Origin: Planctomycetes bacterium RIFCSPLOWO2_12_FULL_50_35
Lineage (GTDB): Bacteria; Planctomycetota; Brocadiia; Brocadiales; Bathyanammoxibiaceae
DNA length: 49,613 nt
Assembly: GCA_001828605.1 (NCBI GenBank)
Contig: MHZB01000009.1
Location: 1 to 49,613, forward strand
Reading direction: 5' to 3'
Shown: positions 14,651 to 16,256 of the stretch, in pieces
How the letters are laid out: each line of letters begins with the position of its first letter
How positions within the stretch are numbered: the stretch's first letter is position 1
Notes under the pieces: generated by a model
Databases searched by the model: none
What the model was told of the DNA's origin: nothing
Seen by the model: the letters and a program-made list of their open reading frames with translations, nothing else
Position numbers and translations under genes: made by a program

Positions 14651-15028
14651 CTACACCCTCCTCTTCTTTCTGGGGCGACAGCCATTATGCGGCAGCGGCG
14701 TAACGTCCTCTATGGACTTTACACTAAGCCCCGCCACCTGAAGCGCCGTAATGGCAGATTCCCTGCCTGAGCCAGGCCCTTTCACCCTTATGTCAAGCTC
14801 CGACACGCCCTGCTTTCGCGCCTTGTCTGCCACGTTCTCGGCGGCCTTTTGCGCAGCAAAGGGAGTGCTCTTCCTGGAGCCCTTAAATCCTACCGTACCG
14901 CCCGATGCCCAACATATGGTCTCTCCATTAAGGTCAGTTATGTTGATGAACGTGTTGTTAAAGGTAGCTTTTATATGTGCTACCGCCCTGCTTATGTTGC
15001 GTCGTATCTTTTTGCCCGCCTTGGCCAT
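14651..15028 (-). CDS. rpsK: 30S ribosomal protein S11
   Basis: [43 protein letters not shown]. Confidence 0.98.
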
Positions 15029-15876
15029 CAACCATTCTCCCCATTAAAAAGTTCAGGAAGAAAATCTTCTAGAATTGAGCGCACACCGAGCTGATTACAT
15101 AACCTCCTATAACCATCCATGCCCTTTTTCTTCCCCGACCTCATCATTCTTGCAGTGATAACAAGGTTCTTTGGCGTTACCGTGGGAGGGACTATCTCAT
15201 GGAATTCAACGTAATAGCCGGCTCCCCTCAAGACCTGTGCCCTCAGGGCCTCCGTAACGAGGTCCGCAAAGCGGTACAGCAAAGGACCAAAATCCGTAAG
15301 GTCATGTAACGCCTGCGCCGACCTTATCTGTCCCCTGAGCTGGTTTTGGCAACAGGGCACCACCATAATGTATCTGGCGCCTAACTTTATGCCCCTGGCT
15401 ATGGCCTCGTCCGTGGCAGAGTCGCAGGCATGAAGGGCCACAACTACGTCTACCTTCTTACCAATAGGGGCGTTGAATCCCAGTGTCTGACCAGCTGTGA
15501 AACTCATGTTATCGAAACCAAGTGAGGCTGCAATCCCCCGACACTTCCCTATAAGTGACTCGGAGATATCCACCCCGTAGAATGTGCACTCCACACCATA
15601 TAATTCCCTCAGGATACGGTTCAGGGCAAATGTAAGATAGGATTTACCGCACGAACACTCCAGGAACACCGGGTCGTCGTCCAGTATGTCTTTAATTTTG
15701 TGCAGAATGTGCGCTGAAAAACCGACCGTTTCCTGAAATTTCTTCATTCCCCTCCGGTTGACATCCCCGCCGGGGCCTTCCCATCGGAGTGGACGCAGAA
15801 AATCCCTGGAGGAAGTTAACACGCCAGAGAGCGTCTCAACGCTGTATCCCGTATCTTGTAAGACAGTGCCCATCAT
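15028..15876 (-). CDS. SAM-dependent methyltransferase (Methyltransf_32-like)
   Basis: [11 protein letters not shown] motif I variant, [31 protein letters not shown] overlaps at both ends. Confidence 0.85.
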
Positions 15877-16256
15877 CAACCCTTTGGAGTCTCTTTCTTC
15901 CCTGCCACAGTCCTTCTTTTACCCTTTCTTGTGCGTGCGTTGGTGCTTGTCCTCTGTCCCCTCACGGGCAACCCCATTTTGTGCCGCAAGCCGCGGTAGC
16001 TGCCTATGTTCTTCAATAAGGCTATATTCTGATTCTCCTGACGCCTGAGATAACCTTCGACAACATAGTTCTTTTCTATATAGGCGCCCAGCGCACTTAA
16101 CTGGTCGTCATGCAGGTTCTTTGCACGAAGGTTCTCGTCTATATTCAGCTCCTTTAGAATCTTCTTGGACAAGGTCCTTCCTATACCGTAAATATAAGTA
16201 AGCGAAATAAAGATTGGTTTATCAGCAGGTATGTCTATTCCCGCAATCCTGGGCAT
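15876..16256 (-). CDS. rpsM: 30S ribosomal protein S13
   Basis: RIAGIDIP, LTYIYGIG, YRGLRH..GLPVRGQRT.TNARTRKG. Confidence 0.98.
   Translation of the reverse strand: MPRIAGIDIPADKPIFISLTYIYGIGRTLSKKILKELNIDENLRAKNLHDDQLSALGAYIEKNYVVEGYLRRQENQNIALLKNIGSYRGLRHKMGLPVRGQRTSTNARTRKGKRRTVAGKKETPKG

Follow-up and report, generated by a model that had tools for sequence, protein, structure and literature searches.

The nearest described analogue of the arrangement reported here is trmD, a tRNA methyltransferase gene that lies inside a ribosomal-protein operon (rpsP-rimM-trmD-rplS) and is translationally linked to its neighbours. We describe a gene for a predicted class I methyltransferase dependent on S-adenosylmethionine (SAM), of the Pfam family Methyltransf_32 (PF13679), that separates rpsM from rpsK in the alpha ribosomal-protein operon of Planctomycetes bacterium RIFCSPLOWO2_12_FULL_50_35 (class Brocadiia, order Brocadiales, family Bathyanammoxibiaceae). 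The stretch of DNA analysed, hereafter the window, comprises 49,613 nucleotides (assembly GCA_001828605.1, contig MHZB01000009.1, positions 1 to 49,613), and the gene occupies positions 15028..15876 on its minus strand. The likeness to trmD concerns how such an arrangement may work. TrmD differs in its unrelated SPOUT fold (Pfam tRNA_m1G_MT), its m1G37 chemistry, its operon and its near universality in bacteria, and a gene for it is also present in the Brocadiales genomes checked (5/5).

For the protein, as distinct from its genomic setting, the comparisons lie elsewhere. Eukaryotic Trm13 is the tRNA position-4 2'-O-methyltransferase, and carries N-terminal zinc fingers together with an HxC...TD-type motif and a double-cysteine motif. 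Trm13/TRMT13 (PF05206) belongs to the same broad lineage as the window protein; it is a eukaryotic enzyme, whereas the window protein is bacterial and operon-borne and has no zinc-finger Pfam matches. TRMT13 is mentioned in the available text of a review as a tRNA ribose 2'-O-methyltransferase, while the function of METTL25 and METTL25B (RRNAD1) is described in the available parts of reviews as little known or unclear; METTL25B has the same Pfam domain as the window protein and METTL25 is its close paralogue, and neither provides a functional lead. The bacterial precedent is TrmS (PA14_68100) of Pseudomonas aeruginosa, which contains a PF13679 domain and is reported, in the available text of the preprint and the article, as the source of all tRNA Gm and of ~25% of Cm, at position 39 of tRNA-Gln and tRNA-Glu, and is described there as a non-orthologous displacement of TrmH in genomes without TrmH (bioRxiv 10.1101/2024.07.01.601603; Nat Commun 2026, PMC13547223). 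An earlier note on this DNA, made from the sequence without database searches, had known of no defined substrate for bacterial members of the family, and that statement is now out of date. TrmS and the operon protein have in common the PF13679 domain and genomes that lack TrmH; TrmS differs, as far as the same text describes it, in being largely restricted to Pseudomonas, in having the domain near the N-terminus of what seems to be a longer protein, and in that no ribosomal-operon placement is described for it. On sequence grounds, the lineage of the window protein is Methyltransf_32, the family that holds TrmS, METTL25 and METTL25B, at a distance from Trm13.

We suggest that the enzyme serves the translation apparatus as an RNA ribose 2'-O-methyltransferase, more probably acting on tRNA than on rRNA, and we hold this reading at about an even chance. 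It would methylate the 2'-O of the ribose in an RNA that serves translation, with tRNA as the first choice of target and 23S or 16S rRNA as the second. The earlier note had arrived at an undescribed translation-modifying enzyme tied to S13 and S11, and had ranked it as the best candidate for a new system in the window. The linkage is real, and the role is made plausible by clade-wide synteny and by an RsuA-like neighbour in related loci. To speak of a new system is an overstatement: the gene adds a member, as yet uncharacterised, to a known family, and what is unusual is its operon position, which defines a clade. In the literature searched, we found no published description of this operon arrangement.

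The methyltransferase gene between rpsM and rpsK

The methyltransferase gene is 849 nt long and encodes 282 aa, or 281 aa from its second ATG. It lies between rpsM (ribosomal protein S13; 15876..16256, minus strand; 126 aa, ending in GGT TGA; Pfam Ribosomal_S13, E 7.1e-31) and rpsK (ribosomal protein S11; 14651..15028, minus strand; 125 aa; Pfam Ribosomal_S11, E 7.7e-47), and the open reading frames, the minus-strand sequence and the Pfam matches all bear out the earlier observation that a 282-aa methyltransferase splits this pair. Its frame is open from 15879/15876 to 15028, and its start is ambiguous: the ATG at 15876 has one base in common with the rpsM stop, and the ATG at 15873 follows that stop by 2 nt. 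The latter aligns with the first methionine of the relatives, and the database copy of the protein has 281 aa.

Neither misassembly nor a recent event accounts for this placement. Both junctions are crossed by contigs from four other public runs, and one contig of 3,823 nt spans the whole of this gene stretch with 9 differences; these independent contigs and the clade-wide synteny rule out a misassembled or assembly-unique location, one of the outcomes that the earlier note had named as fatal to its proposal. The methyltransferase was found in 39 of the 41 genomes sampled from the order (both genomes without it are incomplete, at 85% and 61%) and in 95 of the 101 sampled from the class. Conservation of the rpsM-methyltransferase-rpsK order, which the same note had proposed to check, holds in all orthologue loci examined: infA-rpsM-methyltransferase-rpsK-rpsD is the order in 20/20 related loci, and the same operon order recurs in 24/24 Brocadiia loci from named records (Brocadiales, Scalindua, Brocadia, Anammoxibacter and unclassified Planctomycetota), two of which end at a contig edge, and in further loci from the order (30/30), from two more families of the class (11/11) and from the Pfam search (4/4). 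In four other families of the class rpsM stands directly beside rpsK, with no methyltransferase between them (5/5 genomes).

The operon-type proteins have a single origin. In a quick maximum-likelihood tree of 136 distinct rows (from 161; rows were dropped if the match covered <190 query residues or held a stop, and duplicates were collapsed), computed under LG+G4 with SH-aLRT support and a midpoint root only, the 63 distinct operon-type proteins form one clade with an SH-aLRT value of 100. Some genomes of the class carry a second Methyltransf_32 paralogue of ~400 aa (families f77 and f76; loci L177-L184), which shares one half of the tree with Methyltransf_32 genes from elsewhere in the Planctomycetota, the operon clade lying in the opposite half; the non-operon paralogues lie outside any ribosomal context in 8/8 and 13/13 loci. 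The simplest reading of these sequences is one insertion in the ancestor of a sub-clade followed by vertical descent, such that the gene would have entered the rpsM-rpsK gap of the alpha operon once, in the ancestor of a large part of the class, and would have been inherited vertically since.

Outside this clade the neighbourhoods are diverse, 56 of the 80 loci from named records lying outside ribosomal operons and adjoining varied genes. A Bacillota/Clostridia clade near the operon clade has a gene for an S4-domain pseudouridine synthase directly upstream of the methyltransferase and on the same strand in 10/10 loci (L049, L050, L052, L053, L054, L057-L060 and L089; synthase at about 1170-2110, plus strand), which count as one lineage; the best match of the synthase is to the RsuA 16S model, below the cut-off of that model. 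Single cases elsewhere are a relative between dnaJ and rpsT and two (L061, L094) behind a gene for a protein isoaspartate methyltransferase. CBM53-domain genes lie downstream of the methyltransferase in several of the Bacillota-clade loci.

How would such a gene be expressed? It has the features of a trmD-like arrangement, namely a single strand, no room for signals of its own and a position conserved across the clade. We would expect the methyltransferase to be transcribed together with the operon and made from its transcript, because there is no such room and because nothing resembling a promoter or a terminator was found along the minus strand of rpsM, the methyltransferase gene and rpsK. 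At the first junction (15874..15881, minus strand, GGTTGATG) the rpsM stop TGA and the first methyltransferase ATG have an A in common, and at the second (15026..15033, minus strand, again GGTTGATG) the same is true of the methyltransferase stop TGA and the rpsK ATG. The stop/start overlap with rpsK is retained in 11 of the 12 loci of the window's own family, in which rpsM and the methyltransferase overlap by 1 nt at one extreme and stand 7 nt apart at the other; elsewhere in the order, the genes are separated at each junction by some 20-60 nt. Translation of the methyltransferase may hence be coupled, in the window's family, to that of rpsM upstream and of rpsK downstream. A Shine-Dalgarno-like GGGGAG (15037..15042, minus strand), 8 nt before the rpsK ATG, falls within the final methyltransferase codons GGG GAG AAT GGT (G-E-N-G), and the close relatives L002-L006 have GGGGAGGA or GGAGAGGA at the equivalent position. 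We infer that this is the ribosome-binding site of rpsK, whose initiation would then depend on a site inside the 3' end of the methyltransferase gene. As the methyltransferase would be transcribed with the operon and coupled to rpsM and rpsK, its supply would follow ribosome synthesis, as for trmD.

The two junctions deserve separate comment, since the earlier note had remarked that removing the gene with one copy would restore a coupled rpsM-rpsK junction. Its observation was accurate, GGT TGA TG standing at both (15881-15874 and 15033-15026). The TGATG is itself the stop/start overlap, so that beyond the overlap only the glycine codon GGT is common to the two, and we regard the identity of the 8-mers as no more than chance acting along with coupling, and not as an insertion scar. 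A recent insertion of mobile DNA with duplication of its target site (GGTTGATG), or an error of assembly, would explain why the 8-mer is the same at both ends, and has in our view a negligible probability: the window is alone among the 20 related loci in having GGTTGATG at both ends, the arrangement is found in all the orthologue loci of the clade and their proteins form one clade, independent contigs bridge the junctions, and no longer repeat was found flanking the gene. The composition is native as well, with a GC of 0.509 for the gene against 0.506 for the window and with GC and GC3 matching those of the neighbouring genes, and a mobile insertion with target-site duplication was rejected as a candidate. 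Lineages that lack the gene, moreover, show no overlap of rpsM and rpsK but a spacer, the matched parts of the two genes lying 33-150 nt apart. The window holds 6 copies of GGTTGATG against 1.65 expected, a number reached in 1 of 100 shuffles. The four further copies are at window positions 20322, 27479, 27797 and 34377; none of the three extra copies on the minus strand stands at a gene junction, their sites being within genes or, for the one that encodes M-V-D of the open reading frame 27806-27165, at an N-terminus.

On the minus strand the gene order, from the list of open reading frames, is infA (16421-16639, upstream of rpsM), a short rpmJ-like frame, rpsM, the methyltransferase gene, rpsK, rpsD, rpoA and an L17-like gene; the identities of infA, rpsD, rpoA, rpmJ and L17 were assigned by eye and by position, not by profile, and infA, rpsD and rpoA served as tblastn queries. 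The last gene (window 12179-12943, minus strand), L17-like by position and N-terminal sequence, encodes 254 aa with a long C-terminal tail rich in lysine, glutamate and alanine; the usual length of L17 is about half of this. The open reading frame of map, taken from its first ATG, has a long N-terminal extension and overlaps the end of adk by 137 nt (window 16650-17546 and 17410-18072, minus strand), and its true start is probably further downstream.

Family, motifs and predicted fold

The window protein matches Methyltransf_32 with 108 bits against a cut-off of 27 (E 5.3e-31), over profile positions 1-142 of 143, and a PF13679 match is present in all 53 aligned relatives. The earlier assignment to this family, as a distant relative of Trm13, is supported by these Pfam scores, and the three motifs on which it was based are present as ECSCGKSY (residues 73-80; 15637..15660, minus strand), LHACDSATD (148-156; 15409..15435, minus strand) and PCC (174-176; 15349..15357, minus strand), so that the signature motifs of the family (the D/E-C-G/S-C-G-K-S-Y loop, LHAC..ATDE and PCC) are all found in it. 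The kinship with Trm13 is distant only. TRM13 is matched by 47 of the 53 relatives at E<=0.1, with a best value of 1.6e-9; the profile and structure searches that the earlier note had called for place the window protein below TRM13 membership and yielded no specific solved relative.

The motif I region, at the end of strand beta1 (model strand 70-74), is the family's version of the SAM-binding D/E-x-G-x-G-x-G loop; C74, S75, C76, G77, K78, S79 and Y80 are invariant in 18 Brocadiia sequences (mean column identity 62%), and in the 53 sequences across phyla G77 is invariant and C76 and Y80 are nearly so. In the same 53 sequences L148, H149, A150, C151, A154, T155, D156 and E157, after strand beta4 (model strand 144-150), and PCC, after strand beta5 (model strand 169-174), are invariant; the complete set of residues invariant across phyla is G77, F126, L148-C151, A154-E157, P174-C176, T208, R212, G220, Y221, E227 and N237. 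The invariant basic residues of the 18-sequence alignment are K45, K46, K78, R212, K236 and R243, and the median isoelectric point (pI) of the operon clade is 8.8.

An AlphaFold (AF2) model computed from the 53-sequence alignment has a seven-strand Rossmann-like fold (pLDDT 91.5, pTM 0.90), in which the invariant D103 follows the model strand 98-103 as the acidic residue after beta2. On this model we are confident that the protein is a class I SAM-dependent methyltransferase, and SAM binding is predicted. Structural comparison with VIA-align (wide) returned a flat list of methyltransferases at Z 12-14, the best at 14.1 over 172 residues (rmsd 3.0), with the putative RNA methyltransferases PH1948 and TrmI in the top rows and small-molecule enzymes within 1 Z unit; Foldseek against the PDB gave TM values of about 0.4, with ChlM and KsgA as top matches and no specific relative. 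A sequence search of solved structures found no relative, its sole hit being a chance 29-residue endopeptidase match (E 0.13); NCBIfam gave only a 14.7-bit arsenite methyltransferase match for the window protein, and the Protein Atlas only unnamed Methyltransf_32 clusters. A prediction of the complex of S13, S11 and the methyltransferase, each entered as an alignment, had a score of 0.00 against a mark of 0.32 and weighs neither way.

The family has many members, with 2,416 cluster representatives matched at E<=1e-3 and 234 matched at E<=1e-30. Most of the members (P0133-P0276) are 380-400 aa long and are extended at the N-terminus by ~130 residues, a part without a Pfam match that the operon form lacks. 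Ten relatives of 386-605 aa have such an N-terminal extension without a Pfam match, from which no functional lead could be drawn, and eight proteins of 497-534 aa represent longer forms, for which no further Pfam domain is on record. The relative P0231, of 605 aa, is a fusion with a Ham1-type nucleotide pyrophosphatase domain.

SpoU-type and FtsJ-type enzymes in the Brocadiia

The SpoU_methylase family, which comprises TrmH, RlmB, TrmJ and TrmL, was matched in just 4 of the 41 genomes of the order (G000-G040), the cut-off being exceeded in 3, whereas 105 of 121 genomes of the phylum and 14/14 controls had a match. No match was found in G000 or in the 13 other genomes of the window's family, and the 37 of 41 order genomes without a match include some that are 99-100% complete. 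Within the class, the genomes of families without the operon gene have SpoU in 8/8 cases; of those with the operon gene, 13/31 have it in family f77 and 3/62 in Brocadiales and f80 (G000 included). FtsJ was searched for in five genomes, three of them 99-100% complete, and gave weak matches only (best 32 bits), of which the three checked are RsmB and generic methyltransferases; the positive control, TrmD, was matched strongly in 5/5 of these genomes. The scarcity of SpoU and FtsJ in the order is an unusual RNA-modification gene set for bacteria.

The type of SpoU protein differs as well. When 28 SpoU proteins were classified by best NCBIfam match (all TrmH matches and all but one of the RlmB matches being below the curated cut-offs), TrmH was the best match for 6 of the 15 proteins from genomes without the operon gene, in 6 of 8 such genomes, and for none of the 13 from genomes with it (10 of them encoded in eight f77 genomes, the other 3 in Brocadiales). 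In each of the four f76 genomes, one RlmB-like protein is accompanied by one that is TrmH-like. The genomes with the operon gene hence resemble those of TrmS in being without a detectable TrmH, in a contrast that rests on about one evolutionary event. This absence parallels the Pseudomonas case and supports, within these limits, the idea of displacement, in which the operon enzyme would stand in for the TrmH-type enzyme not found in these genomes; TrmH and RlmB, SpoU-type SPOUT enzymes of unrelated fold and family, are accordingly put forward as its functional counterparts, a replacement that we propose from distribution only. A general anticorrelation of PF13679 and SpoU across the phylum was rejected, as both coexist in several families.

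Candidate substrates and biological meaning

Several observations weigh against a ribose 2'-O-methyltransferase acting on tRNA or rRNA. A position inside genes for 30S proteins names no substrate, the window protein is only mildly basic (pI 8.1), and the structural lists do not separate RNA from small-molecule methyltransferases, the Foldseek top match being ChlM and the VIA list flat. The window protein scores 13.4 bits against TRM13 (PF05206), below the cut-off of 26 (E 0.058), and the kinship of the operon clade to TrmS and Trm13 is established only at the level of the Pfam family. The phyletic argument has its own weaknesses, as it amounts to about one evolutionary event, with TrmH-like calls below the NCBIfam cut-off and with many incomplete genomes; other planctomycete families have both strong PF13679 genes and 1-6 SpoU genes, a strong PF13679 match is absent from 12 non-Brocadiales genomes that also lack SpoU, and family f77 has an RlmB-like protein in addition to the operon gene. 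Lastly, the relative L006 (1501-2346, minus strand; genome G011) has an in-frame TGA at the codon of the invariant R243, which may reflect an error in sequencing, variation between strains or a broken copy (this metagenome-assembled genome is 90% complete, with 6% contamination).

Much of what argues for an RNA enzyme of the translation apparatus would serve equally if the methyl group went to a base of 16S or 23S rRNA or of tRNA and not to a ribose, since the evidence of operon and neighbourhood is the same. The m5C RNA methyltransferases bear catalytic cysteines at the positions after beta4 and beta5, and it is there that the conserved cysteines of HAC and PCC lie; KsgA/Dim1 and ErmC' are among the Foldseek matches, TrmI and METTL5-type enzymes lead the VIA list, and a review, in its available text, repeats a Gene Ontology guess of rRNA adenine dimethylase for METTL25B. 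That annotation is non-experimental, however, the structural lists are flat and undiagnostic, RrnaAD matches only 2 of 53 members, and the relatives with experimental data, TrmS and Trm13/TRMT13, are ribose 2'-O-methyltransferases as far as the available sources describe them. We therefore consider base methylation unlikely. We think it very improbable that the substrate is a ribosomal protein, for example the N-terminus or a lysine of S11 or S13. The gene does lie between rpsM and rpsK with its stop overlapping the rpsK start, an isoaspartate methyltransferase gene stands upstream of the distant relatives L061 and L094, and one relative of 510 aa is named a protein isoaspartate methyltransferase by its source; S11 of Escherichia coli, moreover, has an N-terminal methyl group, and we know of no enzyme identified as responsible for it. 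The family precedents, on the other hand, are RNA enzymes, with no member known to act on protein, the gap between the gene and rpsK is 26-57 nt in 3 of the 5 families of the order, so that coupling is not general, and the S11 N-terminus varies across the clade (MAKAG, MSSVG, MAKKK).

It might also be argued that the methyltransferase is a passenger acting on something unrelated, for example a small molecule, and kept in place by strong constitutive expression and by the low likelihood of a precise excision. The small-molecule methyltransferases ChlM, CysG and TmtA stand beside RNA enzymes in the structure searches, and most named-record loci, like the second paralogue of the class, have a non-ribosomal setting. 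We hold this to be unlikely too: the position is kept in every orthologue examined while S13 falls to 57-65% identity, the catalytic motifs are invariant, a related clade has the gene of an rRNA pseudouridine synthase next to it, the precedents act on RNA, and TrmH-like genes were not found. The 2'-O-methylation of ribose in tRNA or rRNA could be carried to a bolder form. Gm2251 of the 23S rRNA P-loop, the product of RlmB, is near-universal, and one may speculate that in Brocadiales, including the anammox bacteria, the operon enzyme is the only RNA ribose 2'-O-methyltransferase left, doing the work of both TrmH (tRNA) and RlmB (Gm2251), and is made in step with the ribosomal proteins because it acts on nascent ribosomes and tRNA; as it stands, this proposal is rather improbable.

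We note that few gene adjacencies in bacteria are as stable as that of rpsM and rpsK, and a protein-coding gene fixed within this pair across a clade is unusual for that reason; the arrangement can serve as a clean synteny marker for the part of the class concerned. The gene is also a testable candidate for RNA ribose methylation in anammox bacteria and their relatives, which are without detectable SpoU-type or FtsJ-type enzymes. If the proposed role is true, this would be only the second bacterial clade of Methyltransf_32 with an assigned role, in a family whose human members METTL25 and METTL25B are still orphans.

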